A stretch of 64,000 nt of DNA, from positions 25,374 through 89,373 of the IMG/VR virus record IMGVR_UViG_3300014204_000010; one strand, 5' to 3'. How positions within the stretch are numbered: position 1 is the first letter of the stretch; every line of letters starts with the position of its first letter. The DNA is from a virus. Lineage: Duplodnaviria; Caudoviricetes. Of the stretch, positions 13,719 through 63,634 are shown one piece after another. Below the pieces are notes generated by a model. It searched no databases, was not told where the DNA came from, and saw nothing but the letters and a program-made list of their open reading frames with translations. The position numbers were made by a program, and so were the translations under genes.

Positions 13719-13762
13719 TGGCCCGCCCCCATGATAATACCTTTCAAGAGATGTAAGTTTGT

Positions 13763-15883: not shown

Positions 15884-15886
15884 TTT

Positions 15887-17008: not shown

Positions 17009-17010
17009 TG

Positions 17011-17250: not shown

Positions 17251-17368
17251 CTAACACTCCTACAATCGTGCTTGTGTCCTGTTTAATTTGATGTTGATCT
17301 ATTTTGGCGACATAGCATAAATGTTTAAAAAATTCAAGGAAAATCCGCACTTACAAAAATCTTATTTC

Positions 17369-18586
17369 TTACGGGGCAGACGTGGGTGGAACAAAATCGG
17401 TAGTCCACAAAATCCTGTTAGTTAGCACACAACCGTCGATCCATGCTACTGTACCGCTTGAATTATATTGACCGCTTAACCCAAATTCTAAATCAAAATT
17501 ACCCTCCCAAGCATTAGAAAGGGCAGAAGTGAGAGAACCTTTTAATGATCCATTAATATAAACCTTCACAACTCCAGAAGAAGCTGTGATGGCAATGTGA
17601 ATCCAAGTAGAAAAGGGAATGGTTAGAGAGACAGTACCCAAGTTATGACCCCAACGGGTTGAAGCATCATAAGCCTGCATTCCAAATCGGTCGTATTCCA
17701 CATTGTAATATAATTCAATCCACCTGTAATTAGCAGAATAATCCCCGATAAGAAAAGACATCCGAGCAGTCTCATAATTTACCATATCAGCTCTTTCGAT
17801 ACGGAACCAACTATGTAAAGTCCAATTGGTTAAAGGTGTATCTGAAAGATCATAACGTAAACCAGCCCAATCATGGGTGTATGCTGGATGATTAACATAG
17901 AGTGAACCAGAACCGAACTTACTTTGTAGATTGGTAATAGAAGAATAGACATTGTGGGTCAAAGAAGGAGCCGCCGGTGCTTCGTTTATGTAAGTTGTGT
18001 CACCCTCATCCCCTTCAAAATTGAGGACAAGAATTTGATCAGGATCTACATCTAAAACAATGGACGTATGGATTTCATCCGACAATTCACTTTCCTGACC
18101 TCTTCCATCTACAGAGCTTATCCTATAGTAATAATCGCCTGATGAAGTAGGGATGTGGGTGTATGTTAAATCGGTTATACCGGTAATCTTGTTATCTCCA
18201 GTAGTTACTCCTGGAGAAGTATCCCAATATATAATATAAGAAACGGCTCTGGGGGAAGCATCCCAAGATAAAACAGAACTCGACCCACCAGCTACTACGG
18301 GATTTGCGGGGATAGGGGGAGGAGGGGTAGGTACTGTATAAGTAGCCGCCACTCTTGGCAGCAGAGTTCCACCCATCTTGTTCAAGATGACATATTGACC
18401 ATTAACTTTACAAACCAAAACATTCTCTCCTTCGTGGAGATCCGTTAGATCGTAAAGATAACTCCCCGCACTCACAAGACCGTTCTTCAGGAATAAGGAT
18501 ACTCGACCTTTCTCCCTATTGATTGTAATTATCTTTCCTTGTTCGATCTTGTCTGGCTTTATAGTGTTCCCGAGCAATATACTCAT
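17369..18586 (-). CDS. tail protein with fibronectin-III and LamG/concanavalin-like domains
   Basis: LSWDA....SYIIYW...YYYRISSVD...ESELS (FN3); SKFGSGSL, WIHIAIT...VKVYING, IDG (LamG-like). Confidence 0.75.
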   Translation of the reverse strand: MSILLGNTIKPDKIEQGKIITINREKGRVSLFLKNGLVSAGSYLYDLTDLHEGENVLVCKVNGQYVILNKMGGTLLPRVAATYTVPTPPPPIPANPVVAGGSSSVLSWDASPRAVSYIIYWDTSPGVTTGDNKITGITDLTYTHIPTSSGDYYYRISSVDGRGQESELSDEIHTSIVLDVDPDQILVLNFEGDEGDTTYINEAPAAPSLTHNVYSSITNLQSKFGSGSLYVNHPAYTHDWAGLRYDLSDTPLTNWTLHSWFRIERADMVNYETARMSFLIGDYSANYRWIELYYNVEYDRFGMQAYDASTRWGHNLGTVSLTIPFSTWIHIAITASSGVVKVYINGSLKGSLTSALSNAWEGNFDLEFGLSGQYNSSGTVAWIDGCVLTNRILWTTDFVPPTSAP

Positions 18587-23007: not shown

Positions 23008-23475
23008 CTAGTATTCTCCTAAGTCTTCTCTTTCCAAAACCACAAAATTCATCTCGTAATTAAACCGGGTCATCCCGTAATGTGAGCTGATCAAGTTTCG
23101 TCTTGAAATGTAGCCTCTCGGTCGTGCAAACTTCACAAGAAAACAGTCATAGCCGTCGGTAAAATAGAATTGCCCATTAGATATTTGACTCGCTGCTATA
23201 AATGCTTGATTAGTCAAAATCGAAAAGGCTGCCTCATCTGAGATCGTTATCCTCTGATCCTGTATCTGTTCTCCAAAGTCTTGAACTACGACTCCCCCTA
23301 GAGTGGGAATGACCGAACCCCTCATCGTGTTTCCCGCGAAAGGATCATATGTACCCTTACCGATCGGGTCTGTATCGAACACTATTAAAACAGAAGGAGC
23401 AGGATTGAAGGCTTCTTGTGGATCAAGAGAAGCTCCTAACTCCGTACTGAATAAAGCAAACTTCGATCTAGCCAT
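23008..23475 (-). CDS. distal tail protein-like
   Basis: 155-aa ORF directly after the tape measure gene. Confidence 0.5.
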   Translation of the reverse strand: MARSKFALFSTELGASLDPQEAFNPAPSVLIVFDTDPIGKGTYDPFAGNTMRGSVIPTLGGVVVQDFGEQIQDQRITISDEAAFSILTNQAFIAASQISNGQFYFTDGYDCFLVKFARPRGYISRRNLISSHYGMTRFNYEMNFVVLEREDLGEY

Positions 23476-46671: not shown

Positions 46672-48735
46672 TTACCTCGGGCCTAGGTGGTCGTTGCTCA
46701 TTATCATTGTTCCAAAATAAGGAGTTTGCCGTCTTTCTTTAAAATCTGTGGCATTTAGCTCCCTACCCCCATAAACAGTCCAAGATGCACAAAAGATGGC
46801 ATCATCTTGAACCCCGCCCCTTTCATTCTTTTCGGGAGAACCGAACCAGTGTTTGTCAGCATCATGGAAGAAGTATTTCATCTCCTCCCGAAGCATATCC
46901 ATTTCTTTACTCCCCATAACTGCCATTGGGGGAGCTTTGAACCTTCCCTCTCTGGAAAGCAGATAGAACTCACTGAATGCCGCCTTTTGTTTGTCGTAGG
47001 TCGGGAACACAGCCTCAAACTTTATCTCTTCGTCTTCACACCAAGGTTGCAAATCCCAAATTCCCCACCGTTCTCCACATAGTATATCTACCCCATCAAA
47101 CTCTTCTTTGCAGTCAAGGATGAGGTTTTTTAAGTCTTCTAGGCTATGACTCTCGACATGAACCAAATTCAGAAGCAAATAGATGTATGATGGTACCTGG
47201 CCCGGAGTATCAGTAGACTGAAACAGCATCGGTTTGGACTTACTACCAGGTAAACCCTTAGCCATACAAGTAAATATTGTCCGTGCTCCTCTATTTGATA
47301 CTTTCATCGGGTCAGCACGGTCGATACCTGCAAGAATAGCCCAATTAGTATCCAGAATCCCTCCCAGCATCTCCAAGTCTTGAAGAGTTGCCATTACGGG
47401 CATTCCGAGTTTATCTTTCAGGGTGTAGTACTTCTCGACCGGTATCAATCTCTGGACAACCTTATTGATGACCCCTCTTTCTTCATTGAGGTCTCTGTTC
47501 TGGGCTCTCCGTTCGATTAGCATCCGCATTTGTTGTTCGACCTCAACCTTGCGAGTGATAGCTTCCATCATAACTTGATTATTACCCAGGACACCGTCGA
47601 TTCCCATATATCCGATACCTTGAATCATTTCGTCAGTGAATACCTGCTCAGAAGCACTTCCCCAGGTGTTCTTGAAGTATCTTTCGAAGTCCCCCATCGG
47701 AAACTTGGCAGAATAGTCGTCCAGTTGATCCTGAGTCATATTGGGATTCCAATAATCCTCATGATTCGCCTTAGCACTAAACCTGTAACTAAAGTAAACA
47801 GTCTTGCTCTTTCGGGTCACATAGCCGTCAAAAAGGTTATAAAGGATGTGCTGCTTTGACGAAACGGTGGAATCTATTACTCCCAGAGCGTTTGGGATGT
47901 TACGAATAGAACCATCCAGTTGAACAAAGAAGGTGGGCTTTCTCATGTCGAAGATTTCAGAGAAGGTATATCCGGTAATGTTGGAAACGATACCACTGAA
48001 GCTACTAATCGACCGAATAACCGAAACAATGTTATTGCTCTCATCCTTGATCATAATTCTTCTCTCCTGGATGTTTCTTTTCCCCACTAAATCCTGGAGA
48101 GTAGGAGAATTGAGAATGATGTCGCGCATGATGTCGAAATGGACGAAGGTGACCTGTTCCTTAGAGTTAGCTCCAAGAACGATCTGCTGCTTTGTCCAGT
48201 TAAAGAACTTCCAGAGTTGGATAAGACAAGCCAGCAAAGACTTACCCTCCCCGCGCATCCAACACAGAATGATTAACCGGTATATAAACTGACCGTTTAT
48301 CATTCTCAGACATTCTCGGACTACTTCTTTCTGGGCATCCCAAAACTCCCAGTAGGATCGGCCAGTGCTTGGATTTTTAACCCTTGGCAATTTCGAGATA
48401 GGGCACCAGACGGCCATGGTCGATCCTACCGGATAAATGGGGATTGCTACGTGGTCTTCACACCATTTAATGAAGCCTTCAGGACCGTCTCTGTAGGAAT
48501 CGGGCTCGTATATTTCGTAAGGAGGCAAATCCCAAGGATTGACTCCTGGGAGAAATACCTTAGCCTCAAACAAGTCTTCGATTTCCTTTTCAGAGAGGGT
48601 TTCATCCGGTTCTAAGGATTCTTGTTCCTTCTTCTTTGCCAGTTGTTGTTCTTCGTACAACTCTTCGGTCTTCTTCCGATAACCGTCCAGCAAAGGTCTC
48701 TTTATTAATTTCCTTCTTTTCAGAGTTAAAGCCAT
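46672..48735 (-). CDS. terL: terminase large subunit
   Basis: WMRGEGKS Walker A, GANSKEQ, FSEI Walker B variant, RNase H-like nuclease GIDRAD ... QDDAI. Confidence 0.9.
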   Translation of the reverse strand: MALTLKRRKLIKRPLLDGYRKKTEELYEEQQLAKKKEQESLEPDETLSEKEIEDLFEAKVFLPGVNPWDLPPYEIYEPDSYRDGPEGFIKWCEDHVAIPIYPVGSTMAVWCPISKLPRVKNPSTGRSYWEFWDAQKEVVRECLRMINGQFIYRLIILCWMRGEGKSLLACLIQLWKFFNWTKQQIVLGANSKEQVTFVHFDIMRDIILNSPTLQDLVGKRNIQERRIMIKDESNNIVSVIRSISSFSGIVSNITGYTFSEIFDMRKPTFFVQLDGSIRNIPNALGVIDSTVSSKQHILYNLFDGYVTRKSKTVYFSYRFSAKANHEDYWNPNMTQDQLDDYSAKFPMGDFERYFKNTWGSASEQVFTDEMIQGIGYMGIDGVLGNNQVMMEAITRKVEVEQQMRMLIERRAQNRDLNEERGVINKVVQRLIPVEKYYTLKDKLGMPVMATLQDLEMLGGILDTNWAILAGIDRADPMKVSNRGARTIFTCMAKGLPGSKSKPMLFQSTDTPGQVPSYIYLLLNLVHVESHSLEDLKNLILDCKEEFDGVDILCGERWGIWDLQPWCEDEEIKFEAVFPTYDKQKAAFSEFYLLSREGRFKAPPMAVMGSKEMDMLREEMKYFFHDADKHWFGSPEKNERGGVQDDAIFCASWTVYGGRELNATDFKERRQTPYFGTMIMSNDHLGPR

Positions 48736-49778: not shown

Positions 49779-50023
49779 CCTTCCCCTCCGGTTTCTACAG
49801 CACTAAAAACCAAAGTAATTTCCCGATCTTGAGGATTAACAAAGTCGATAAAATCCCCGTACATCGGTATATCTCCAGAAGGATCCTTTCGACAAAGCCG
49901 GTAGGAAGCTTTTAAAGGGTAATCAAATTCCTTACGAACAGCTTCCACCATTTTATCCACCTTCATGAGAAGCCCAAAATGAAACTCCGAAGTGCCACGG
50001 TCGCAGGCAACAAACACCTTCAT
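49775..50023 (-). CDS. hypothetical protein
   Basis: 82-aa ORF overlapping both neighbours by 4 nt. Confidence 0.55.
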   Translation of the reverse strand: MKVFVACDRGTSEFHFGLLMKVDKMVEAVRKEFDYPLKASYRLCRKDPSGDIPMYGDFIDFVNPQDREITLVFSAVETGGEG

Positions 50024-50661
50024 CTAATAACCCCCTTTTTATTGGTATCTTCTTGCGACATCTGCTTATAATAGGATCTGTCACCAGTCTCTGACTTATT
50101 GACATCATCCCCTAGATTCGGCTTGTAATTGAAGGTAAAGGCTAACTCTAAGTCTTTCCACATAATATGGATAGTTTTCAAAGTTTCCCGTATCTCTTTA
50201 TAAACCGGATGAATCTTTTCCCCCTGAGGTGTTGGTACCATCACGCTTGTAATGCTCATCTCTAACAACTGTAATCGACAAAGCTGCATATAAAGCGGTA
50301 CAATCTGCACTCCCAGCTTAAAAGTCATTACTTCGTCTAAGAATTGATACGTTGAAAAGATCGTTTGGTAGAACGCTTTTAAATAGTCTACTTGTACTAG
50401 GCACTTCCCGCCTTTTTCAAATTGGCAACGATTATAAACGGGACAGTTGCTCTGGCATGACTGAACGATGTCCCAAGAAAAAAGGGTAACGCCCTCGCGG
50501 ACATTGCCCTTCTGAATATCCATCTCTCCAATCTTCTCGGAGTTTACGATTTCTAGCGGCTTTCGCACTAAGTCCATATGATTCACCATCGTTTTTTCTT
50601 CGGAATAGCAGGTACAAAACACAAAGTCAAGAAAAAAGTTAAGGAAAAATAGAAATTCCAT
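50020..50661 (-). CDS. putative terminase small subunit (P27-like)
   Basis: GEKIHPVYKEIRETLKTIHIMWKDL resembles the P27 'NP...L..L' segment; first gene of the late operon; true start may be ATG 50589. Confidence 0.5.
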   Translation of the reverse strand: MEFLFFLNFFLDFVFCTCYSEEKTMVNHMDLVRKPLEIVNSEKIGEMDIQKGNVREGVTLFSWDIVQSCQSNCPVYNRCQFEKGGKCLVQVDYLKAFYQTIFSTYQFLDEVMTFKLGVQIVPLYMQLCRLQLLEMSITSVMVPTPQGEKIHPVYKEIRETLKTIHIMWKDLELAFTFNYKPNLGDDVNKSETGDRSYYKQMSQEDTNKKGVIR

Positions 50662-50751
50662 AGAAAAATTTAGAAAACCTCTCAGCTTTTGAAAGCAACC
50701 ATAGAAAAACTAAAAAGGGCGGGGGCTACTCCTTCGATAACTACGTCCCAG

Positions 50752-50823
50752 TAGAGCCAGGTTCACCAAAACTGGAATAAATTATGCCAATAGAGCCAGG
50801 TTCACCAAAACTGGAATAAATTA
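50752..50823. repeat. 33-bp exact direct repeat, 2 copies, period 39
   Basis: TAGAGCCAGGTTCACCAAAACTGGAATAAATTA at 50752-50784 and 50791-50823. Confidence 0.95.
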
Positions 50824-50850
50824 CGTGGTGAGGACCTACACGCTGCACAC

Positions 50851-50880
50851 AAAAAAGAGCGTCAAGATAAAGCTTGACGC
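50851..50880 (-). terminator. intrinsic terminator-like hairpin
   Basis: GCGTCAAG/CTTGACGC 8-bp stem followed on the - strand by TCTTTTTT. Confidence 0.6.
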
Positions 50881-50981
50881 CCCCTACAGTGTTTTTGAAG
50901 CTGTATGATTTGATCATATCTCTTGAGATTGCAGCGTAGAGTTAATCTCACACGCTTTAAATTTGATATAGAACACAAACA

Positions 50982-51024
50982 AAAAGAGCGAATAAAGCTT
51001 GTGATTCGCTCTATTCGCTCTTTT
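50982..51024 (-). terminator. hairpin/terminator downstream of the GG/CC-free gene
   Basis: AAAAGAGCGAATA/TATTCGCTCTTTT 13-bp stem with T tracts, 20 nt after the stop of ORF 51045-51458. Confidence 0.6.
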
Positions 51025-51044
51025 GTTTTCAAAGCTTGTATAGC

Positions 51045-51458
51045 TTACGTCAATGACACTTCACGCTTTTTCAGTCTACTTACAGTGTCACTCGTCAAGT
51101 GTCTCTTTACTCTTTGTAACACACTCTTAGCATCTGCTTTATCTTTAAACTGAATCTTGTTTGTTTCGATGATTGCTTGCAGTTTAGCAGTAGCTCTTGC
51201 GTCTTTAGCAATCACTTTAGCAAGATCATTGATCGTCATTTCTTTGCTTTTAAGAATTGACGTAATGAGATGATCACTTGCACTTGCTTGACTAACTTTC
51301 GCATAATCGAATTTATCATCAGTCAATGACGCTGCGATTGCATTGTCTGTACGCATAATCTGTCTATATTCTTTATGCGTATCTCGCAACACAATAACAG
51401 TCTTTTTGTTGTTGTTTGCATTTACATTTGCAGTCTTTTCGTTTTTCTCTTCGCTCAT
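51045..51458 (-). CDS. basic helical hypothetical protein lacking Gly, Pro and Trp
   Basis: 137-aa ORF inside the GG/CC-free segment; RBS is AAAGTGAG (no GG); terminator downstream. Confidence 0.75.
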   Translation of the reverse strand: MSEEKNEKTANVNANNNKKTVIVLRDTHKEYRQIMRTDNAIAASLTDDKFDYAKVSQASASDHLITSILKSKEMTINDLAKVIAKDARATAKLQAIIETNKIQFKDKADAKSVLQRVKRHLTSDTVSRLKKREVSLT

Positions 51459-52123
51459 TTCATTAACTCACTTTCTTTTAGTTTAGAGATTGCAGCTTTC
51501 TTGCTACTCTCAATAATTGCACTTGAGCAATCTCAAGTAGTAATAAGCTTTTGTTTGACTGCTTATTTCAAAGAGCAAAGCGCATAAAGCGCAATTCTGT
51601 TTTCTCAAAATAAACGCTTTTTTGCAACTATTTATTTTTTAAGCATTTTTTGACAATGTAGCTCCGATTAACCATATAAATCAATATTACTACCGGTTAT
51701 TATTAATATTCCCCTATATAAGGCTTATATGTATTAACACTATGCGGCGTAACGGAATAATCCAGGTTCCTCAAAAACAGGTATTTCCTAAATCCGATAT
51801 AGCATCTCAGTATTAACAATTTGTTATAACTGTAGCACCTGAATCCATGGTATAGTAACGGTCTCTGTATTAACAATTTGTTATAACAGTAAAACATTAT
51901 AGGTTTGGATGGTTATCCACCACCTGGGATTGGAGCAGGATTAAGGAATAGAAAGACCGTCTGGAGGAGGACCATCAACCGGAAAAAGGAATTAATTAAA
52001 AAATCCTCATTTACGGTTGGGCCCTCCCGAAAATCCAGAGACCCTACCCAGGGGGAGGAACTCCATCCCCAGGACCTGGATTTCCTTCCCCACCGACCTT
52101 AAAAAACAAACAAAAAACAATCC

Positions 52124-52153
52124 TTGACATCGTGTTGAGGACCCCTATATACT
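52124..52153 (+). promoter_or_regulatory. sigma70-like promoter
   Basis: TTGACA (52124-52129), 18 nt, TATACT (52148-52153), with A-tract UP-like element upstream. Confidence 0.55.
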
Positions 52154-54356: not shown

Positions 54357-54387
54357 CTACTATTAATACATGGAAGGTCGGAAGGTT

Positions 54388-54445
54388 GCAGAGGGGAGCC
54401 ATGATATGTGGCTCTAATGCACGATTCCCGTCCCAAGTCGGGAAT
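54388..54445 (+). ncRNA. twister ribozyme, permuted (P5-type opening), copy 2
   Basis: GCA-GAGGG-P1(GAGCCA/TGGCTC)-TAA-TGC-AC-P4(ATTCCCG/CGGGAAT, loop TCCCAAGT); predicted cut U54415|A54416. Confidence 0.9.
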
Positions 54446-54467
54446 ATGTCTTATAAAGGAGGAAAGA

Positions 54468-54596
54468 GTGGAAATTATTGTCAAGAATAGATGCTTGCAA
54501 TGGTTAACCAAGTTCATCCCTTACTGGCTTGTAAAGGAAGGTAATTTGGTTAAGGTTCGTTACGGTAAACTGTTTGCCACTAAGATCACATTCTAA
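54468..54596 (+). CDS. small early protein (42 aa)
   Basis: GTG 54468 after AAAGGAGG, in frame with track ORF 54408-54596. Confidence 0.55.
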   Translation: MEIIVKNRCLQWLTKFIPYWLVKEGNLVKVRYGKLFATKITF

Positions 54597-54621
54597 CTGA
54601 AAAGGACAAAGGAGGAAAGAG

Positions 54622-54999
54622 ATGGCTGATGTTCATTTGATTGAACCGCATGAGCAACCGGTGGAGCAAACACGATCGGTACAGTACTCAAAATTGGAAC
54701 TCATTCTTTCGGTTAAGAATGAGGAAGAGGAGACAGTCAAAGATGTTCTGGATATCATTGAGCTGGAGGCTAAAGCTCTCAATGACATGTTGGAAACGGT
54801 TGATGGTAATCCTCATCGACTCACCGTCATCACAGACACAAATGGTTTCAAGGACGAATTCTTGGTGGTAACGTCCAATATTTTCAGCTTTCGAGAGATT
54901 TCCGAGATTCTGGTTAGGATGACGGAAAGTATCGCCGTAGCATCGGCAAACACGTTCTTCACGGAACGCAAAATCAAGTGGGAAGAAATTGCACAGTAG
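54622..54999 (+). CDS. early hypothetical acidic protein
   Basis: 125 aa, SD AAGGAGG. Confidence 0.75.
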   Translation: MADVHLIEPHEQPVEQTRSVQYSKLELILSVKNEEEETVKDVLDIIELEAKALNDMLETVDGNPHRLTVITDTNGFKDEFLVVTSNIFSFREISEILVRMTESIAVASANTFFTERKIKWEEIAQ

Positions 55000-55005
55000 A
55001 GCATG

Positions 55006-55064
55006 GCAGAGGGAGACCCGAGCAATCGGGTCTTAATGCACATATCCCGTCCCAAGTCGGGATA
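55006..55064 (+). ncRNA. twister ribozyme copy 3
   Basis: P1 AGACCCGA/TCGGGTCT with GCAA tetraloop; P4 TATCCCG/CGGGATA; cut U55034|A55035. Confidence 0.92.
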
Positions 55065-55089
55065 ATAAAACTTAAGGAGGGAAGAGAGT

Positions 55090-55917
55090 ATGGAAAAGGA
55101 AAGCGTAAGAAATGCTGAAATCTACCGTCTAAAGATGGTAGAAAATAAGAGTAACTCGGAAATTGCTAAGGTGTATGGCATCTCCCCGGTGAGGGTCGCT
55201 CAGATAATCTGGGACATCTCGGAAAGCGAGTCAAAAGGTAGAGTTGCAGGTCTTCATCCCTTCCCATCTCAGTGGGAAGAACATATCCTGATCAATACTC
55301 GGGAGATAAACGTCCTGACGAGAAAAGGAATTAAGACTCTGAAGGAACTCACGACTTACACGATCAAGGAACTTCGGGGACTCAAGAATGCTGGACCGAA
55401 ATCATTCGGCAGTCTCCAAGAGAAGCTTGAGGAACTCGGTTATTACATTGCTGGTACTCAGCCAGAAATCAAGCTGAGGCAGGATGACATCGTTTACCTA
55501 CTGATGCAAAAATTAAAGGATCACGCCACTTCTTGTAAGAAGGGTACATACAATCAGTCCGATCCGACAGCTTACGAGAAAGTAACCAGTAAGCTCTTTC
55601 TCCAGTATGGATTCAGCTTCCCCATAGTATCGGAGGATGAAGAGCCAGAACTTTTTGATGACTTCTGTCCCGATCCTGAGACTGTTATCATCCAAGCAAA
55701 CGACTGTACATGGGGAATCAACTTCACCATTAAAGCTTCGAATGGTAAACATGTCGGTTACTGGTCAAGAGAATCAACCGGAGCTGATGGTAAATGGACG
55801 GGATGCTCACCGGAGTTTATCCCCGTCATCACACGATTGTTCCTTGGAGGAACTAGGGAACCGAGTGAGAATGACATAGAAGACCCGTACAGACGGGAAA
55901 TTGATCTTAACAAGTAG
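55090..55917 (+). CDS. HTH plus RNA polymerase alpha-CTD-like domain protein
   Basis: N-terminal sigma-4-like HTH (NSEIAKVYGISPVRVAQII); then NTREINVLTRKGIKTLKELTTYTIKELRGLKNAGPKS, matching the alpha-CTD pattern. Confidence 0.75.
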   Translation: MEKESVRNAEIYRLKMVENKSNSEIAKVYGISPVRVAQIIWDISESESKGRVAGLHPFPSQWEEHILINTREINVLTRKGIKTLKELTTYTIKELRGLKNAGPKSFGSLQEKLEELGYYIAGTQPEIKLRQDDIVYLLMQKLKDHATSCKKGTYNQSDPTAYEKVTSKLFLQYGFSFPIVSEDEEPELFDDFCPDPETVIIQANDCTWGINFTIKASNGKHVGYWSRESTGADGKWTGCSPEFIPVITRLFLGGTREPSENDIEDPYRREIDLNK

Positions 55918-55925
55918 GTAGAAAG

Positions 55926-55982
55926 GCAGAGGGCAGCCGTTCTAGGGACGGCTGTAATGCACGAAACCGGTCCCAAGTCCGG
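55926..55982 (+). ncRNA. twister ribozyme copy 4
   Basis: P1 CAGCCGT/ACGGCTG; P4 CCGG/CCGG; cut U55955|A55956. Confidence 0.88.
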
Positions 55983-56009
55983 ATTAACAAAGAAGGGAGA
56001 GAAGAGAGT

Positions 56010-56360
56010 ATGGAAGATAAATCGAAACCTAAGACCACGATTATTCTTGCTACCAGATTAAAGTTTACACTTATTATCCGAAATGAGTCCGGGGAGGCAG
56101 GAGAAGACATCATCAATGGTGTAACGGCTTTCGTGAGGAAGCTTAATTACCTCTTTGAAAGCCAAAAGTGTGCGCCACTAGATGTTACTGTGGAGATTGA
56201 TTCTTGTAAACTGGAGGATGAATTGTCGGCTTCCGTTACTGACTTGCGAGGATTCAGTCTGTTTGCCAAACACATACCGCATTTGCTTGACAGTATCACC
56301 GGATCGTCGTCTAACTTCTCATTTACGGGTAAGAAAATCCGTATTGAGAATTTGGAGTAA
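56010..56360 (+). CDS. early hypothetical protein
   Basis: 116 aa directly after ribozyme copy 4. Confidence 0.7.
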   Translation: MEDKSKPKTTIILATRLKFTLIIRNESGEAGEDIINGVTAFVRKLNYLFESQKCAPLDVTVEIDSCKLEDELSASVTDLRGFSLFAKHIPHLLDSITGSSSNFSFTGKKIRIENLE

Positions 56361-56378
56361 GGGTCGGAAATAAACGAT

Positions 56379-56434
56379 GCAGAGGGGAGCCATGATATGT
56401 GGCTCTAATGCACGGCACAGTCCCAAGTCTGTGC
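56379..56434 (+). ncRNA. twister ribozyme copy 5
   Basis: P1 identical to copy 2; P4 GCACAG/CTGTGC; cut U56406|A56407. Confidence 0.92.
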
Positions 56435-56462
56435 AAAAACTAAACTAAGGAGGAAAGAGAGT

Positions 56463-57290
56463 ATGAAAAAGACAGCAAAAGGATTGGTTAAAAAAGCGGG
56501 TAAGGTCGAAGAGAAGAATCAGGTTAAGGATGCTGCGGAAGTAACTGCTGAGGATAAAGCAGTTGCATTGGCTCCGGTAGCTGAAGTTGCTCCGGTAGCT
56601 GAAGTTGCTCCGGTAGTTGATGCTTCGGTAGCTGAAGTTGCTCCGGTAGTTGAAGCTGCACCGGTTTCCGAAGCTGTGCAAGCTGAAGCTACACCGGTAG
56701 CTGAAGTTGCTCCGGTAGTTGATGCTCCGGTGAGACCCGAGATTCCTGCTGATTTCTGCTTAGAGCAGGATTTTTGGGCAGGCAATGAAGCTTGCTTTGA
56801 CCCGGAGAACAAAGACTGTAAGGATTGTGCTGAAAACTATGCACAAGCCTTCGAGGCATGCCAGAAGAGACATGAATTTCTGAAGGCATTGGCCAAGAAG
56901 TCTCCGGCAATGAAGCGAAAGTCTCCTCTTCTCAGTAAGAAACCTCAGTCCATCATGATTGACGATATGATCAAGTTGAGTATGCCCTTGGTGGATATGG
57001 TCGCTAAGTTGTCGGTGGATGAGTTCAACAGTGTGGAGAAGGACGCTCGTAAACGTCTTGACAGTCACATCAAGGCTATCAGGACGGGAACTTACTGCAG
57101 GGCGGAGGCTATGCGTCCGTTCATCGGTTATCTTGAAGCTCCGGCAGCAACGACAGCTCCAGCTGCTTCCGCTCCGAAAGCAGCGGATCCGAAAGCGGTA
57201 GCTCCGAAAGCTAAAGCAGCAAAACCCAAAGCTGCTTCGGCAACGACACTGAAACCGAAGGCAGTGGAAGCGGCATCACCTGCTGCTTAG
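56463..57290 (+). CDS. early protein with APVAEV repeats, central Cys-rich domain and histone-H1-like AKP tail
   Basis: 18-bp GCTCCGGTAGCTGAAGTT tandem units at about 56571-56730; CFDPENKDCKDC; C-terminal APKAKAAKPKAA. Confidence 0.8.
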   Translation: MKKTAKGLVKKAGKVEEKNQVKDAAEVTAEDKAVALAPVAEVAPVAEVAPVVDASVAEVAPVVEAAPVSEAVQAEATPVAEVAPVVDAPVRPEIPADFCLEQDFWAGNEACFDPENKDCKDCAENYAQAFEACQKRHEFLKALAKKSPAMKRKSPLLSKKPQSIMIDDMIKLSMPLVDMVAKLSVDEFNSVEKDARKRLDSHIKAIRTGTYCRAEAMRPFIGYLEAPAATTAPAASAPKAADPKAVAPKAKAAKPKAASATTLKPKAVEAASPAA

Positions 57291-57295
57291 AAATT

Positions 57296-57358
57296 GCAGA
57301 GGGCTCGGGGACAACTGATGTCCCCGAGTAATGCACAGCCTGAGTCCCAAGTCTCAGG
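57296..57358 (+). ncRNA. twister ribozyme copy 6
   Basis: P1 CTCGGGGACA/TGTCCCCGAG; P4 CCTGAG/CTCAGG; cut U57329|A57330. Confidence 0.92.
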
Positions 57359-57387
57359 TAAATAAACTAAAGGAGGAAAGAGAGAAG

Positions 57388-58119
57388 ATGACCAAGGAAG
57401 ACATCATCAACAAGGTTCTGAAGTTACTGCAATTGGGAGATGCCAACAAGAACGAGAACATTCACCAGAGGGAAGCAGCCATGAACAAAGCTGCAAAGCT
57501 CATGGCGGAACATGCTGTAAGCTTTGCAGACCTCAGGGAAGGTAGGGTAAAAGAAAGTCCCTTCACCCATGTTGTCATTGACGGTTCTTCCATCAACCCT
57601 AAAGTCTGGGAACTGATACTCTGTACCAGTATAGCAAAAGTGTTCGATTGCTCTTCCGTCAACTCTTTAAAACCATCATTTCAGATGCACGTCCTCGGTG
57701 AAAAAAGTGACGTGGAGCTGGCTGTGTTCTTCTATACTTATCTCAGCAGATCGGTAAGGAACATGGTGAGAGTCCACACCACCAAAGAAAAGCTTCTCAA
57801 AGAAGGATATCTTGGAAACGAGAGTGTGTTTCGGGACTCATATGCAAACGGTATTACGGAGAAAATCCGATCCAGACTGGAGGACCTGTACTCAAAGAGG
57901 GAAGCTTTTATTCCCTCTACGGGTAAGGAACTCATGGTTGTAAAAATGAACGAGGTTTCAAGCTATGTAAAATCTGTATTCCCCAATCTAACTAAAGTCA
58001 CCAAGACCATGGTCAGAGACGGTCATGCTTACATGAAAGGTCTGAATGACGGGGAAAAAGTGAACATCTCTCGGCCCATTGCAGGCAATGGAGCAACACA
58101 GGAAGGAGCTATCGAATGA
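57388..58119 (+). CDS. DUF2786-domain protein
   Basis: IINKVLKLLQLG....IHQREAAMNKAAKLMAEH N-terminal motif; ATG 57388 after AAAGGAGG. Confidence 0.75.
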   Translation: MTKEDIINKVLKLLQLGDANKNENIHQREAAMNKAAKLMAEHAVSFADLREGRVKESPFTHVVIDGSSINPKVWELILCTSIAKVFDCSSVNSLKPSFQMHVLGEKSDVELAVFFYTYLSRSVRNMVRVHTTKEKLLKEGYLGNESVFRDSYANGITEKIRSRLEDLYSKREAFIPSTGKELMVVKMNEVSSYVKSVFPNLTKVTKTMVRDGHAYMKGLNDGEKVNISRPIAGNGATQEGAIE

Positions 58120-58262
58120 TGTACCTTATGATTTCCCATATGATCGTTTTGATTCTCGGAATCATCGTCGGGTGGACAATGAGAAATTGCATCCGACGGA
58201 GGCTAGCATCAGCCCGCTTGATTGATTTTGACAGCTGGTTTGCTGCTGGAAAAAGGAAATAG
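58116..58262 (+). CDS. small single-TM protein (48 aa, not in ORF track)
   Basis: MMYLMISHMIVLILGIIVGWTMRNC...GKRK*; ATGA overlap with the upstream gene; its TAG overlaps ribozyme copy 7. Confidence 0.6.
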   Translation: MMYLMISHMIVLILGIIVGWTMRNCIRRRLASARLIDFDSWFAAGKRK

Positions 58263-58319
58263 CAGAGGGGACGGGGAGAAATCCCCGTCTAATGCACAGC
58301 CTGAGTCCCAAGTCTCAGG
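58262..58319 (+). ncRNA. twister ribozyme copy 7
   Basis: P1 GACGGGGA/TCCCCGTC with GAAA tetraloop; P4 identical to copy 6; cut U58290|A58291. Confidence 0.92.
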
Positions 58320-58346
58320 AAACCTAATTAAAGGAGGAAAGAGAGT

Positions 58347-58934
58347 ATGAAACAGGATTTTGATAAGGTCTTAAACTCGGTGGTTCTGGAAGAGTATGGT
58401 GGGTGTAATCCCAGTAAAGATCCGATAATCACGCTCAAAGCTCGGATTGAGGAAGGTGCAATCCTTGTCTTTCTCGTAGGCAAATGGCGACCCATAAGGT
58501 CTTATTTCGGTAGAAAGTCCAGCATAACGAACAAAGTTATACTGAAGGATATGAGGGACATTATCCGAAGAAACACCGGATGGAGTAAGACTGCCCTCAA
58601 AGATAAACCTATTGAGTTCAAATGGGTTTATCTCGGTTCTAAGGACTTTCCAATAGTCCTTAATAATTGGTCGGTAATCAGCTTTAGAAATTCTCCATTC
58701 GACGCTCCGGAGCTTCATCAAACAGCCCTTGCTGGCACCACCGTAGAGCATCCGGTTCTGGGCAAAGATTACCGTGTACGAACTACGGGTATCCAAGAAG
58801 TCGATGGTCTTCTTGCCAAGACTAAGCATCATTGGTACAAGCTGGGGTCGGTAGATCCTATGTATAGGATTTATCTGAAAGACCACAACATTCCGTTCGA
58901 TGAGAAAAATCCAATCAAGCTCAAAACTAAGTAG
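58347..58934 (+). CDS. early hypothetical protein
   Basis: 195 aa after the canonical RBS; C-terminal GTTVEHP...RTTGI...YKLG motif. Confidence 0.75.
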   Translation: MKQDFDKVLNSVVLEEYGGCNPSKDPIITLKARIEEGAILVFLVGKWRPIRSYFGRKSSITNKVILKDMRDIIRRNTGWSKTALKDKPIEFKWVYLGSKDFPIVLNNWSVISFRNSPFDAPELHQTALAGTTVEHPVLGKDYRVRTTGIQEVDGLLAKTKHHWYKLGSVDPMYRIYLKDHNIPFDEKNPIKLKTK

Positions 58935-58990
58935 CAGAGGGGACGGGGATTCTCCCCGTCTAATGCACACAGTCCGTCCCAAGTCGGACT
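58934..58990 (+). ncRNA. twister ribozyme copy 8
   Basis: P1 GACGGGGA/TCCCCGTC; P4 AGTCCG/CGGACT; cut U58961|A58962. Confidence 0.92.
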
Positions 58991-59012
58991 AATAACTTAA
59001 AGGAGGAAAGAG

Positions 59013-59309
59013 ATGGCAGAAACAAAGATTCAGTGGATCGTTGAGGCTGATCCTACCGGAAAGTCTCTCTTTGAGAACTTGATCCGCAGCCGCAACGACG
59101 AGAAGCTGGCGGAGAACATTCTGAACCTTCTGAGTTGGGCAAAACCTGACATCATGAAAGAAAGTCCTCTTGCCGTCCTGTTTGAGCTAATCTACAATTC
59201 TAACTGGGAGGATGCGGAGCATACAATAATAGACTTGTCTGAGGACAAGAAATGGATCACTATCGAATCCCGTTGTCCAGAAGTTTTCGTTCATTTGGGG
59301 GAGAAATAG
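59013..59309 (+). CDS. early hypothetical acidic protein
   Basis: 98 aa between ribozyme copies 8 and 9. Confidence 0.75.
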   Translation: MAETKIQWIVEADPTGKSLFENLIRSRNDEKLAENILNLLSWAKPDIMKESPLAVLFELIYNSNWEDAEHTIIDLSEDKKWITIESRCPEVFVHLGEK

Positions 59310-59363
59310 CAGAGGGTGGCTGCTTTGGCAGCCATAATGCACGGCACAGTCCCAAGTCTGTGC
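59309..59363 (+). ncRNA. twister ribozyme copy 9
   Basis: P1 TGGCTGC/GCAGCCA; P4 GCACAG/CTGTGC; cut U59335|A59336. Confidence 0.92.
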
Positions 59364-59391
59364 AAAAACTAAACTAAGGAGGAAAGAGAGT

Positions 59392-60258
59392 ATGGAATTA
59401 GGAGCATTTGTCCAGGAAAGAAGTAGTCAGGAACGTCGGGGTATCCAGGAAAGATACCCGGATATTAGATTTCCTCAACCTCAATTAGAGCCGGTCTTCT
59501 ATGGTCGTCGTGAGAAATTCAGGATAGACGGCAAGAAAGCCATAGTCGATCAAGCCGACAAAGACCTTGTTTTCGGTATATGTAGTGAGGATTACAAGGT
59601 TGTTCATTATGAAGACCTCATAATGATGACCGAAGAAGTGATGGCAAAACAAGGGTTCATGGTGAAGATGAACCCCAGAATCCTCTCAAACGGAGGAAAG
59701 TTCGTGTTGTCTCTCCAGTTTCCCGATTACGGAGAAAGTATCAGAAAAGGGGATGACATCTTCCCAAAGATGGACATCCAGTCCAGTTATGATCTAAAAT
59801 GGAAGCTCACAGGCAGATTTGGTGCTATTCAGCTCAGATGCACCAATGGCTGTGGAACATGGAAAATGTTCAAAAGGTTCGCTCGTAGGCATCTCCAGTC
59901 ACTGATAGTCTCAGAATTGGGAGACACCATCAGTGAAGCTTTGCCAATCTTTACGGAACAAGCAAAGCTCTGGAAGAAGTGGGCACACATGAAAGTACCC
60001 GTTCTGGCTTACGAAGAAATGTGGGCTGATCTCCCATTCAGTCCGGCACAAAAAGAAAAGATTCAGTTACTCCCCGAAATTGGCACCGGTCTCGCAATAG
60101 ATGGTGCCCTGAAGAGGGGAAATCTTGATCTTTGGACTCTTAACTCCATTTTAACTCAGTATGCAACCCACGAACTTAAATCCGATCTCAAAATGGTTGA
60201 AATTGAACCGGTGATTGCAAAAGTCATGGAAGATACTTACGAAAAACTAGCGGCATAG
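59392..60258 (+). CDS. DUF932-family protein
   Basis: FGICSEDYKVVHYED, NGGKF, SSYD, RFGAIQLRCTNG...RRH and LWTLNSILTQYATH motifs. Confidence 0.75.
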   Translation: MELGAFVQERSSQERRGIQERYPDIRFPQPQLEPVFYGRREKFRIDGKKAIVDQADKDLVFGICSEDYKVVHYEDLIMMTEEVMAKQGFMVKMNPRILSNGGKFVLSLQFPDYGESIRKGDDIFPKMDIQSSYDLKWKLTGRFGAIQLRCTNGCGTWKMFKRFARRHLQSLIVSELGDTISEALPIFTEQAKLWKKWAHMKVPVLAYEEMWADLPFSPAQKEKIQLLPEIGTGLAIDGALKRGNLDLWTLNSILTQYATHELKSDLKMVEIEPVIAKVMEDTYEKLAA

Positions 60259-60279
60259 AAACTTCAGGAGGGGGAACTT

Positions 60280-60504
60280 TTGAAATCAAACCCGGTAAAA
60301 TCTATCACTTTGCAAGAAGCCCAAAAAGAACTGGAGAAGGCTGAGCAAAAAGTGAAAGACGGTAATGCTTCACATCTGGATCGGTATGAGTTAATGGAAC
60401 TTGCAGCCCATGTTGCTATCTGGCAAACGATAAGGAATCATGTGTTCGTAGGCAAGATGGTGACCATGGATCTAGTGACAGGTACCCTTAAACTTTGGGA
60501 TTAA
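60280..60504 (+). CDS. early hypothetical protein
   Basis: 74 aa, TTG start after AGGAGGGG. Confidence 0.6.
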   Translation: MKSNPVKSITLQEAQKELEKAEQKVKDGNASHLDRYELMELAAHVAIWQTIRNHVFVGKMVTMDLVTGTLKLWD

Positions 60505-60507
60505 AAA

Positions 60508-60572
60508 GCAGAGGGAGTGAGCGGGGGAGAAATCCCGCTCATTTAATGCACGGCACAGTCCCAAGTCTGTGC
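60508..60572 (+). ncRNA. twister ribozyme copy 10
   Basis: P1 AGTGAGCGGG/CCCGCTCATT (one G-U pair); P4 GCACAG/CTGTGC; cut U60544|A60545. Confidence 0.92.
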
Positions 60573-60600
60573 AAAAACTAAACTAAGGAGGAAAGAGAGT

Positions 60601-61026
60601 ATGTCCAAAACAAAGGAAGCATATGTAGAAGAAATCCTGGTTAGGTTGGCAACAAACCATTCCCCAGACTCTCACATCTACAAAACAGTGGAATCGGGTC
60701 TGAGACTTATGAGTAAGGAATTTGTAGACGCTCTTTGGTCCCTGGTGATATGTATGGCCGAAAGTACCACTGTCAAGGATAATATTAAACTGTTTGCGAA
60801 AACCATTGAGGAGGCTGCAAGAATCCGAGAGGAATCTTGGCATCAACAAAACCACTTTTACAAGAAAAACATAGAGACTGCTGTTCGGGAGGCTGTAGGA
60901 AATACTGAATTGGACTTCAGATTTGCACCAATTATTGAGCTTCTTCTTTCATGTGTCTGGAATGATGCTCTGGAATGGGCAGAAGAGATTAATCAAGAAA
61001 AAGCATCGTCCCAATCGCAAAAGTAG
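60601..61026 (+). CDS. early hypothetical helical protein
   Basis: 141 aa after the canonical RBS. Confidence 0.75.
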   Translation: MSKTKEAYVEEILVRLATNHSPDSHIYKTVESGLRLMSKEFVDALWSLVICMAESTTVKDNIKLFAKTIEEAARIREESWHQQNHFYKKNIETAVREAVGNTELDFRFAPIIELLLSCVWNDALEWAEEINQEKASSQSQK

Positions 61027-61145
61027 TTGAATGAAGATTTACTCGTCTTTTGCGATGGGCAGAGCTGTCCGTCTCTCTCAGAAGCGGACAAAGCTTGTTC
61101 TTGCTAGCATCTAAGCAGAAGACAAAGGGCCTTAAAGGGGGAATT

Positions 61146-61325
61146 ATGATCTCCGAGGATGTATGCAAAGAGGATTGTCGTAAGTTTTATGTACCCGAAC
61201 CCAAGATGACTTGCCCAAACGGTCACACGGGTAGAGTTTACCATGTAAGAACGGGTAAGCTCAATAAGGATTGGTACGAATGTGAAACCTGTTTGATTCA
61301 GTGGGGAGGAACCGATGAGGGGTAA
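61146..61325 (+). CDS. small Zn-ribbon-like protein
   Basis: ATG 61146 after AAGGGGG; CPNGH...YECETC. Confidence 0.55.
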   Translation: MISEDVCKEDCRKFYVPEPKMTCPNGHTGRVYHVRTGKLNKDWYECETCLIQWGGTDEG

Positions 61326-61698
61326 ATTCTACGGTAATATTCTGCGGATTGAAGTAGATACCCATGAAGAGAAGTTAGACGCTGGGGAAGGTCTTCAATG
61401 GCTTCCCTGTGATCTCTGTGGGGAGCTACAAAAGGTAAGTTTGGACCTAACATCCTTTGTCTGTACACCATGTAAAGCAGCCAAAGGAGCTTCTGTCTAT
61501 ATAGAGGAAGAAGATGAGGATGAGGGGAACGTCTTTTGTAGAAGTGAAGATTCCTTGGAATCTTTTCTGAAAGACGGAGGTTGGGAATCAATAGAAGACT
61601 TCGAAGAGGAAACCGGTGTTGCCCGGGAGTTACTTCTCAGACACTGGTTTTGTGTCGTTCATGGTCGAGTGTACATCAAACCTATTCCAGACTTGTAG
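61315..61698 (+). CDS. acidic protein with CxxC motifs
   Basis: CDLCG...CTPCK; acidic C-terminal half. Confidence 0.65.
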   Translation: MRGKFYGNILRIEVDTHEEKLDAGEGLQWLPCDLCGELQKVSLDLTSFVCTPCKAAKGASVYIEEEDEDEGNVFCRSEDSLESFLKDGGWESIEDFEEETGVARELLLRHWFCVVHGRVYIKPIPDL

Positions 61699-61714
61699 GA
61701 AAGGAGGTGAGCTA

Positions 61715-61849
61715 TTGTTCCAAATTATTGGTTTTAGTTTCCTGCTTATCATTCTCCTGTTAGGATCTATTTTCAGACCTAATAGACTTCCTCAAAACAG
61801 GGAAATCAAAAAACCACCACACCCGTTGTATTTTGTAAAGAAAAAGTAG
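61715..61849 (+). CDS. small single-TM protein
   Basis: TTG 61715 after AGGAGG, in frame with track ORF 61616-61849; its TAG overlaps ribozyme copy 11. Confidence 0.55.
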   Translation: MFQIIGFSFLLIILLLGSIFRPNRLPQNREIKKPPHPLYFVKKK

Positions 61850-61904
61850 CAGAGGGCAGGCACTCCGGTGCCTGTAATGCACAGAGACAGTCCCAAGTCT
61901 GTCT
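61849..61904 (+). ncRNA. twister ribozyme copy 11
   Basis: P1 CAGGCAC/GTGCCTG with cUCCGg tetraloop; P4 AGACAG/CTGTCT; cut U61875|A61876. Confidence 0.92.
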
Positions 61905-61930
61905 AACCTAAACTAAGGAGGAAAGAGAGT

Positions 61931-62341
61931 ATGAAAGTAGTGCCGCATATCGTGTTACAGGTGAAAGAAACAGACGAACTTATACTTGTGTCAGGTCCTA
62001 ACGGATGGAACCTAAGTAGGATTTCCTTTGGTTGTCAGTTGCACACTGAACCACCACTGCTGGGCTTAAACGATGTTACTTACCCGGAAGAAGTCGTGTT
62101 CACTATACTCTGGTCCGGTGGCCAGGATGGCTCTATATCTGCAACCGTAGTGGAAACAGTGGTAGATGGGGAATCGAGGGTGTTGTACTCCAAGCGAAAT
62201 ATTCGGGCAGGATATGTTCTTCCTGTTGAGTTTATAGCTGAGGTTATAAACAAAGAGATTGATTCCTGGAATCGCTCCCGTAGGAGGGCAGATGAGTTTG
62301 CCAAAAAGGTAGGGATGACACTACACGAAGGTTCTTGGTAG
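61931..62341 (+). CDS. early hypothetical protein
   Basis: 136 aa after the canonical RBS. Confidence 0.7.
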   Translation: MKVVPHIVLQVKETDELILVSGPNGWNLSRISFGCQLHTEPPLLGLNDVTYPEEVVFTILWSGGQDGSISATVVETVVDGESRVLYSKRNIRAGYVLPVEFIAEVINKEIDSWNRSRRRADEFAKKVGMTLHEGSW

Positions 62342-62626
62342 ATGGAGGATACGAAAATGCCGAAGATTAAGGTTTATCTGAATGGTACTGACAAGAATCC
62401 GTTCGAAAAGATGGGATTGTTACAGAATCCGTTCCCGCAGCTTGCCGAAGCGGAAAGCAACGAAGCAATCTTCCGACTACAGAAGCTGGGAGGACCGCCA
62501 ATTCCTAAGAATGAGGCGGAGAAATACATCAGAGAAACCCTGACAGGATTTAGCCAGGAATTTGTTGATCTGTGTGTGAAGAATTTTGAGGTGGGCAAGT
62601 ATGTCGAATTTACAGTCACATGGTAG
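62342..62626 (+). CDS. early hypothetical protein
   Basis: 94 aa, abuts the previous stop. Confidence 0.65.
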   Translation: MEDTKMPKIKVYLNGTDKNPFEKMGLLQNPFPQLAEAESNEAIFRLQKLGGPPIPKNEAEKYIRETLTGFSQEFVDLCVKNFEVGKYVEFTVTW

Positions 62627-62945
62627 GAAGTACAAAGGTTATAAAATCGTTCATGCCACGGAACGAGATGATGAAGTTCTGTCCATTGCTGATCATTCTT
62701 TCACCATCAAACTTCAAAAGGCTTATAGGTGCTTCCCCGGAGCTGGTTTGTTTCTGGGTTTAACCAAACAATACTGTCTGGACTACTTCTCTATAGCCGG
62801 GGAAGAGGGAGCATTACCCGAATTGCTTCTTACCTATGAATTTAGGGAGAAAGATGTTATCAATGGTGACCCAACATATCAGAATGGAGAGGTACAAGTC
62901 AGGTGGGCTAAGTACCTGGCAAAAGAGAAAGTTGAAGGCAAATAG
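62601..62945 (+). CDS. early hypothetical protein
   Basis: ATG 62601 after GAGG; its TAG overlaps ribozyme copy 12. Confidence 0.65.
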   Translation: MSNLQSHGRKYKGYKIVHATERDDEVLSIADHSFTIKLQKAYRCFPGAGLFLGLTKQYCLDYFSIAGEEGALPELLLTYEFREKDVINGDPTYQNGEVQVRWAKYLAKEKVEGK

Positions 62946-63001
62946 CAGAGGGGTCGGGAGGTAACTCCCGACTAATGCACGGCACAGTCCCAAGTCTGTG
63001 T
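62945..63001 (+). ncRNA. twister ribozyme copy 12
   Basis: P1 GTCGGGAG/CTCCCGAC with GUAA tetraloop; P4 GCACAG/CTGTGT; cut U62973|A62974. Confidence 0.92.
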
Positions 63002-63029
63002 AAACACAAATTAAAGGAGGAAAGAGAGT

Positions 63030-63578
63030 ATGGGAAAAGATCAAAAAATTAAGACAGAAGTAAATCCTGTTCCCAAGATTGCGGAAGCCTTAGTGGGAAA
63101 AACTATGACTGTAAATCTCGGAGGAAAGAAATATGATGTCCACTTCAGAACATCATTCTACACCCTTTCTAAATCCCCCGCTATCGAATTGGTTCTCGCA
63201 GATGGAGAACCGTTTGGAACGCTTACAGTCAATATTCCAGAGGCACTCGAAGTCCATAAGGAAAAGCTTGGTGACATGGAAATCGTCGTCAAGACCTGGT
63301 CAGAGAATGAAGCTCTGGCTGAAGCAGCCTTAAAAACGGGTCTCTTTGAAGACACGGGTCGCCGAATCTCGACGGGCTTTGTGCTTGCCCAAATATGGAG
63401 AGTGAAAGCTGTAGCAACAAATATGCGTCATGAAGGAAAGATTATCGTAACCTTCTCCAGTAAAACAACCGAAGAAGAAAAGGTAAAGATACTCTTTGCC
63501 ATCGAGCAGGTTCTCAATAGTTCGGTGAGTACCATCATTTACCGCTTCACTAACGCTGGCATCCGTGTTCATCTGTAG
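63030..63578 (+). CDS. DUF4313-like early protein
   Basis: GEPFGTLTVNIP...VKTWSENE...GLFEDTG...STGFV motif. Confidence 0.55.
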   Translation: MGKDQKIKTEVNPVPKIAEALVGKTMTVNLGGKKYDVHFRTSFYTLSKSPAIELVLADGEPFGTLTVNIPEALEVHKEKLGDMEIVVKTWSENEALAEAALKTGLFEDTGRRISTGFVLAQIWRVKAVATNMRHEGKIIVTFSSKTTEEEKVKILFAIEQVLNSSVSTIIYRFTNAGIRVHL

Positions 63579-63634
63579 CAGAGGGGTCGGGAGGTAACTC
63601 CCGACTAATGCACATCTCGGTCCCAAGTCCGAGA
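63578..63634 (+). ncRNA. twister ribozyme copy 13
   Basis: P1 identical to copy 12; P4 TCTCGG/CCGAGA; cut U63606|A63607. Confidence 0.92.

Follow-up and report, generated by a model that had tools for sequence, protein, structure and literature searches.

A phage transcription unit free of GG and CC dinucleotides and its possible escape from the phage's own DNA modification

Introduction

The closest described systems to the one considered here are the DpdA-dependent 7-deazaguanine systems of phages, which have short target motifs (PMC10484667, PMC7544227): in phage iggy, DpdA modifies GA at 97% of sites, and in CAjan GA and GGC are modified (PMC10484667). Here, we analyse a 64,000-nucleotide stretch of a Caudoviricetes genome (the window), which corresponds to bases 25374-89373 of the 89,373-bp virus record IMGVR_UViG_3300014204_000010; the genome in this record is termed G000, and positions are those of the window unless stated otherwise. 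Within the window lies an island without a single GG or CC, which coincides with one complete minus-strand transcription unit consisting of a promoter, a leader, a ribosome-binding site (RBS), an open reading frame (ORF) and two terminators. This GG/CC ban is real, strongly selected and conserved, and no account of such islands turned up in the literature searched. We propose, with moderate confidence, that GG would be the target of the phage's own DNA modification and that the cassette would be the sole stretch of the genome that stays ordinary DNA.

Results

Extent of the GG/CC ban

An automated count found neither GG nor CC across positions 50885-51663, the resulting 781-bp gap being bounded by a CC at 50883-50884 and another at 51664-51665. 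No other GG/CC gap exceeds 62 bp in the window or 64 bp in the genome of 89,373 bp, which holds about 9,900 GG/CC sites outside the island. Gaps of this kind are not seen for any other dinucleotide class in the whole genome. The G+C content of the island is 34.8% and its own base composition predicts 47.6 GG and CC sites, so that the zero and the "several tens" given in an initial annotation of this DNA are both confirmed. Since 49 GC and 24 CG steps are present, the ban is not a matter of mere AT-richness.

The exclusion had also been said to span the coding region, the upstream region and the terminator. In line with this, the 365 non-coding bases of the island are as free of GG and CC as the ORF (19.4 expected, 0 seen). 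The protein of 137 amino acids encoded by the ORF (51458..51045) contains no Gly, Pro or Trp, as was noted initially; these three residues account for 12% of the genome's proteins, which gives an expectation of 16.5 in 137 residues and a probability of about 2e-8 for zero. When this protein was re-coded with the codon usage of the genome, a mean of 25.2 GG/CC sites was obtained, with a minimum of 9 in 20,000 trials. Permutation of the ORF's own synonymous codons yielded a mean of 8.6 and a minimum of 1, and as zero was never reached, codon order too must be constrained. The ban lies far outside these nulls, which are of the codon-shuffled type suggested in the initial annotation. The RBS stands apart as well, as had been pointed out; of 90 long ORFs, 57 have a Shine-Dalgarno word of the GG type ahead of them.

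Conservation in diverged relatives

Relatives were fetched by means of the terminase large subunit (TerL; Table 1), which returned 52 viral and 33 metagenomic loci. An island at the syntenic place is carried by at least 14 diverged relatives, whose TerL is 50-69% and whose island protein is 14-46% identical. The three complete island-bearing genomes, G000, G001 and G002, have exactly one island each (781, 664 and 688 bp, respectively) and no other anomalous dinucleotide gap. Among the relatives, islands extend over 440-1250 bp (with lengths including 664, 688, 709, 614, 1056, 956+294, 808+340, 566+343 and 440 bp), and most contain one ORF of 109-165 amino acids without Gly, Pro or Trp. An exhaustive protein search retrieved nine homologues at 31-46% identity, each with 0-1 Gly/Pro/Trp, and thus the exclusion is kept despite divergence. 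The locus of the closest homologue has a perfect 754-bp island, and a 544-bp contig with another homologue has zero GG/CC throughout. According to a profile of the island-protein family, the gene occurs only in island-bearing genomes, always with 0 Gly/Pro/Trp, and in no island-less relative. Further, the cassette is inverted relative to TerL in two relatives and is still GG/CC-free, which indicates that the trait follows the gene unit. The strong DNA-level selection postulated in the initial annotation is upheld by these results, both strands being affected and diverged homologues keeping the ban.

The syntenic island recurs in independent IMG/VR, JGI, Logan and ENA assemblies and is therefore not an assembly chimera, an origin that the initial annotation had named among the outcomes that would speak against it. 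Nor can an artefact of another kind be maintained, be it a low-complexity stretch or a by-product of amino-acid composition, because GC and CG steps are present, codon permutation never gave zero and the non-coding part is equally free; we regard the artefact explanation as refuted. A hypermutation (deaminase) origin of the island was likewise rejected, since the ORF, RBS, promoter and terminators are intact and conserved.

Island edges are sharp, with GG/CC density normal again within a few bases, and leaks are few and consist of single sites. Three elements are common to all islands: a promoter resembling TTGACA-N16-18-TATAAT, a GG-less version of the Shine-Dalgarno sequence as RBS (AGAAAG[T/C/A]GAG), and an intrinsic terminator whose stem contains neither GG nor CC. 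Sigma-70-like promoters were predicted inside nine islands of relatives, and the parts of these islands that, on the basis of these predictions, are not transcribed (1053 bp) contain no GG/CC against 30.6 expected from their own composition. With the two longest upstream parts excluded, about 600 bp remained, with about 12 sites expected and 0 seen. The absence of GG/CC from DNA predicted to be untranscribed, together with the strand symmetry of the ban, points to a reader of DNA rather than of RNA.

A constraint at the RNA level, by which a GG/CC-free transcript would escape an endoribonuclease or Shine-Dalgarno-like pairing, is accordingly very unlikely. It would fit the GG-free RBS found in every relative, and also the leaks inside ORFs, all of which are CC on the sense strand and never GG, although these amount to four events only. 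It does not account for the simultaneous ban on GG and CC, nor for the lack of any site in promoter and upstream DNA that is predicted not to be transcribed (0 seen, 30.6 expected), and we know of no RNase with GG/CC specificity.

A 7-deazaguanine cluster accompanies the island

Between 12.5 and 20.3 kb of the G000 genome, genes for QueD, QueE, FolE, a second radical-SAM enzyme, QueC, a HAD phosphatase and DpdA constitute a 7-deazaguanine cluster that directly precedes the genes for the processivity factor and the DNA polymerase. Family matches were obtained for FolE (PF01227, 8e-43), QueD (PF01242, 2e-32), QueE (radical SAM, 3e-13) and QueC (PF06508, 6e-16). DpdA (L056:8976-9848) had no Pfam match at E <=0.01; it was recognized by phrog_887 (E 2e-37) and by tblastn matches to annotated phage enzymes, and is 36-38% identical to the DpdA of NP1 (Nipunavirus). 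The polymerase, encoded at 21748-24330 of G000, outside the window, is a family A DNA polymerase with an N-terminal uracil-DNA-glycosylase-superfamily domain (PF03167 and PF00476).

The same cluster, with DpdA in synteny, is present in G001 and G002. A further island-bearing record of 54 kb, G003, ends just before the cluster region; its sample also yielded a 37-kb record, G011, whose SSB gene is 100% identical, and both were treated as one phage (G003/G011). G011 carries DpdA, FolE, QueD and QueE at the syntenic place (12219-17729), and tblastn gave no match in it for QueC, the second radical-SAM enzyme or the HAD phosphatase.

In the island-less relative G006, which also lacks the island gene, 2.9 kb lie between the initiator-like gene and the polymerase, compared to 10.9 kb in G000. 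No que or dpdA gene was found in this interval, where two genes without an assigned family (167 and 379 amino acids; L145, 869-2550) stand before the processivity factor and the polymerase. When complete genomes from the island-less clade were sought by way of its DNA polymerase, only fragments were returned. The cluster was thus found in 4/4 island-bearing phages with the region covered and in 0/1 island-less phages at that site.

G/C-rich 6-bp palindromes with GG or CC largely escape avoidance in three complete genomes

G000, G001 and G002 avoid 6-bp palindromes very strongly, as exemplified in counts of 0 for ATCGAT (21.9 expected) and 0 for AGATCT (19.4 expected). We compared 6-bp palindromes with four G/C positions, using a maximal-order Markov expectation. 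The 16 words without GG/CC had observed-to-expected ratios (O/E) of 0.29, 0.19 and 0.22 in G000, G001 and G002, while the 8 words with GG/CC reached 0.88, 0.76 and 0.79. GAGCTC, for instance, is purged in all three genomes (0 of 14.7, 7.6 and 11.0 expected, in the same order). None of 20,000 random 8-of-24 word splits reached the observed contrast, and non-palindromic hexamers displayed no GG/CC contrast (0.99 vs. 0.98). This exemption of GG/CC words from the purge is what would be expected if a GG-directed modification protected such sites. As GA-containing palindromes are among the most avoided, DpdA is unlikely to protect GA here.

Five other DpdA phages showed no GG/CC contrast (0.47-0.83 vs. 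0.49-0.81). Relatives without an island upstream of TerL avoid GG/CC palindromes more (O/E 0.43-0.70), and in a pooled test of island-less relatives no dinucleotide class had a lower ratio than GG/CC. A test of this type placed GA/TC first in 9g and NP1, which agrees with the motif measured in CAjan and iggy, members of the same subfamily. Inside the islands, 6-bp palindromes number 11.5-22.6 per kb, compared to 8.1-12.1 in the rest of the genome. Restriction-type palindromes are therefore not locally depleted but denser in the islands, so general restriction-site avoidance is not the cause of the ban, and the avoidance of GG/CC restriction sites that the initial annotation had listed among its candidates is disfavoured. 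Another of these candidates, a GG/CC-specific modification that must be absent from the island, fits best in view of the DpdA/preQ0 genes and the palindrome exemption.

Alternatively, a factor unrelated to DpdA might read GG/CC in many phage-host systems, the link with DpdA being coincidental. We consider this unlikely, because in this phage family the island and its gene coincide with the DpdA cluster and the palindrome exemption. SSU5, which is without DpdA, is only mildly depleted (40 vs. 111 sites per kb; longest gap, 154 bp), and to our knowledge there is no universal cellular reader of the bare GG/CC step. Even without DpdA as the reader, the islands would imply a factor reading a bare GG/CC step in infected cells, undescribed in print.

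Anatomy of the cassette and its neighbourhood

The features of the cassette and of the adjoining DNA are listed in Table 1.

Table 1. Coordinates of the GG/CC-free cassette and neighbouring features in the window
Feature	Position	Strand	Basis
GG/CC-free island, whole transcription unit	50885..51663	.	0 GG/CC, 47.6 expected, unique in genome
Sigma-70-like promoter, TTGTCA, 18-nt spacer, AATAGT	51627..51656	-	Consensus match
Leader of ~160 nt with long hairpin	51459..51620	-	Inverted GAGATTGC copies, 51486-51496 and 51526-51536
GG-free RBS AAAGTGAG	51467-51474	-	Sequence
ORF P0001, 137 aa, isoelectric point (pI) 9.8, 0 Gly/Pro/Trp, helical, weak winged-helix look	51045..51458	-	
First intrinsic terminator, strong hairpin, stem without GG/CC	50977..51029	-	Inverted repeat
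Second terminator; G5 run forms the left island edge	50854..50885	-	
AGGTCCTCACCA motif just beyond the island terminators	50826..50837	-	Single exact copy in genome
Two 37-bp direct repeats between island and late operon	50748..50823	.	Direct repeat; tandem repeats here in relatives too
Late operon gene 1, putative small terminase by position only	50020..50661	-	Homologue directly precedes TerL in relatives
Terminase large subunit (TerL)	46672..48735	-	
Sigma-70-like promoter of the divergent early operon	52124..52153	+	

The cassette is placed between a leftward late operon (gene 1, TerL, portal) and a rightward early operon, and the -35 hexamer of its promoter sits 8 nt inside the right island edge. 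No family in the island was detected in an Rfam scan, and late operon gene 1 had no family match. The AGGTCCTCACCA motif has a near copy at 52133-52144 (-), on the opposite side of the island; it is kept only in closer relatives (G001, G004 and L096), and tandem repeats follow it. It could be a candidate late promoter or a packaging site. A multi-copy late promoter was rejected on account of the one exact and one near copy and the restriction to closer relatives. Two operator-like 30-bp direct repeats with an internal near-palindrome, TTAACAATTTGTTATAA, occur at 51805-51891, in the interval that separates the island promoter from the early operon.

This setting invites another explanation of the ban, namely that the island is a genome end or terminal repeat. 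It would be unmodified because DpdA cannot act there, for example owing to end synthesis at packaging, and so could afford no GG/CC site left without protection, or it would enter first and have to survive host nucleases. The premise of a GG target is shared with our proposal of a cassette kept out of the modification; the reason for the ban differs. The location between late packaging genes and the early operon, beside repeats and a single-copy conserved motif, would suit an end, as would the very sharp edges, beyond which GG/CC density is normal within a few bases, and a lethal cost per site would account for the strictness of the ban on both strands and in non-coding DNA. We nonetheless judge a genome end to be quite unlikely: the edges follow the promoter and the terminators and not a fixed length, the cassette is inverted in two relatives, and the gene itself is absent from the island-less clade, which an end property alone would not predict. 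As for the 123-bp terminal repeat of the G000 record, it has the size of an assembly overlap, which it resembles, and the distances from the island to the record ends differ among the three complete genomes.

Across the early operon, at 54387-63632 (+), twelve Twister-P5 ribozymes (RF02684, 45.7-57.1 bits) were detected. An early protein encoded at 55090-55917 (+) contains a region resembling the alpha-subunit C-terminal domain of RNA polymerase (PF03118, E 1.7e-8). A search for a T7-like RNA polymerase (PF00940) gave no match, the control genomes being unmatched too.

The island protein P0001

The P0001 family is basic (pI 9.4-9.9 in ten members) and has the common motifs [ST]QAxxxD and R[IV]xRH[IL]..D....R..KR. 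In an AlphaFold (AF2) model of P0001, residues 50-137 are helical with a predicted local distance difference test score (pLDDT) >90. In a VIA fold search the highest Z was 5.2, and the top rows included several winged-helix domains (Z 3.7-5.2). Foldseek found no match in PDB or BFVD, and there was no significant match to Pfam or PHROG or in a PDB profile search. A search of viral contigs with P0001 returned none, and a word-index homologue search returned only P0001 itself. With low confidence, we take the family to be one that probably binds nucleic acid, presumably DNA. In contrast, the Ocr-like anti-defence protein envisaged in the initial annotation is not in keeping with this family, which is basic rather than an acidic DNA mimic.

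These features also bear on the avoidance of protospacer adjacent motifs (PAMs), another possibility raised for this island. Without a CC (type I-F) or NGG (Cas9) PAM, the host CRISPR (clustered regularly interspaced short palindromic repeats) system would neither target the island nor take spacers from it, and an early anti-defence or regulatory gene would be shielded. Few two-letter recognition signals are known, and PAMs belong to them; the ban is strand-symmetric and covers the promoter, and a strong host-type promoter is found here as at anti-CRISPR loci. However, a cut elsewhere would be equally harmful, with about 9,900 GG/CC in the rest of the genome, and the palindrome exemption and the link with DpdA would be left unexplained. 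Moreover, the island usually encodes a single basic protein and not an acr-aca pair; most islands have a single ORF, and a second small ORF was found only in G003. We deem PAM avoidance improbable. The second ORF of the G003 island (L019 684-884, -) encodes an acidic product of 66 amino acids, which is also free of Gly, Pro and Trp.

Discussion

In the reading that we favour, the cassette evades the phage's own DpdA. After replication, DpdA would swap G for a 7-deazaguanine made by the phage-encoded FolE, QueD, QueE and QueC, and the cassette, having no GG on either strand, would be the only chemically ordinary DNA in the packaged genome. Whatever the state of modification, host RNA polymerase could then read this early, presumably regulatory gene as soon as the DNA is injected, and the product would act on the modified genome. 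A two-letter target has a precedent, since known DpdA enzymes read G plus its 3' neighbour. GG steps comprise 25.6% of the G in the genome; replacement at GG would therefore affect roughly one G in four, a proportion that falls among the replacement levels known. That DpdA reads GG, and the reason why one unit should stay unmodified, are both points that we infer.

A more specific version, which we put forward only tentatively, holds that every GG bears a bulky 7-deazaguanine, that the modification acts as a transcription barrier or switch in addition to armouring the DNA against restriction, and that the DNA-binding product of a plain "boot" gene licenses or times the modified genome.

Several findings weigh against an escape from a GG-directed modification. 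The evidence for the modification and for its motif is indirect, and the co-occurrence of island and cluster comprises four positive lineages and one negative, all of them related. The 4-bp palindromes GGCC and CCGG are avoided like the other 4-bp palindromes (O/E 0.42-0.75), and without G+C matching the palindrome signal is weaker and mixed. G003/G011 has both an island and DpdA and yet no exemption (0.48 vs. 0.53), which may be explained if this phage makes a different base. No dinucleotide-free island was found in five cultured DpdA phages (ZHS, RHEph04, NP1, CAjan and 9g), so a motif-free cassette is not general to DpdA phages. It must also be asked why a single modified base within 700-1000 bp, on either strand, should matter so much that Gly, Pro and Trp are given up.

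If the proposed escape from a GG-directed DpdA is true, a DpdA specificity for GG, not previously described, has been predicted from sequence alone, and the motif of an uncultured phage could be inferred cheaply from the palindromes that escape avoidance. It would also mean that hypermodification has a cost, at least one gene being kept out of it, and that selection is strong enough to rid a protein family of three amino acids. The transcription and regulation of modified phage DNA could be approached directly through the cassette and its product.

Comparison with known systems

Restriction-site avoidance and CRISPR-PAM depletion in phage genomes are genome-wide and statistical. The present case is similar in that short words are selected out, and 6-bp palindromes are indeed avoided in this phage. 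The ban itself, in contrast, is complete and confined to a single transcription unit; outside that unit the word is abundant, and the island is not palindrome-poor.

A whole gene without a short word that escapes its reader is exemplified by ACA-less mRNAs, which resist MazF. That case acts on RNA and on one strand, whereas here both strands and DNA predicted to be untranscribed are concerned.

The pre-early genes in the terminal repeat of T5 and the leading region of T7 with gene 0.3 are first-expressed blocks read by host RNA polymerase, from which certain restriction sites are reportedly missing. They would resemble the cassette as small, first-expressed, set-apart units, although the host-type promoters are recognized here by consensus match only. 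Further, a few specific sites are missing from those blocks, while here a whole dinucleotide is banned, the protein is affected and its product is basic.

T4, with hydroxymethylcytosine DNA and Alc, and SPO1, with hydroxymethyluracil DNA and TF1, illustrate how transcription discriminates modified DNA. Modification is coupled there to the choice of the DNA that is transcribed, a likeness to the mechanism proposed here, but the whole genome is modified, and we know of no unmodified gene island in T4 or SPO1. No homologue of Alc or TF1 was found in this phage.

Compared to the DpdA phages iggy and CAjan, this phage differs in its proposed GG target, a motif not reported so far, and in that its cluster adds a second radical-SAM protein and a HAD phosphatase. 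It likewise has a DpdA homologue together with FolE, QueD, QueE and QueC, and a target made up of G and its 3' neighbour would yield a two-letter, strand-symmetric ban such as the one observed here.

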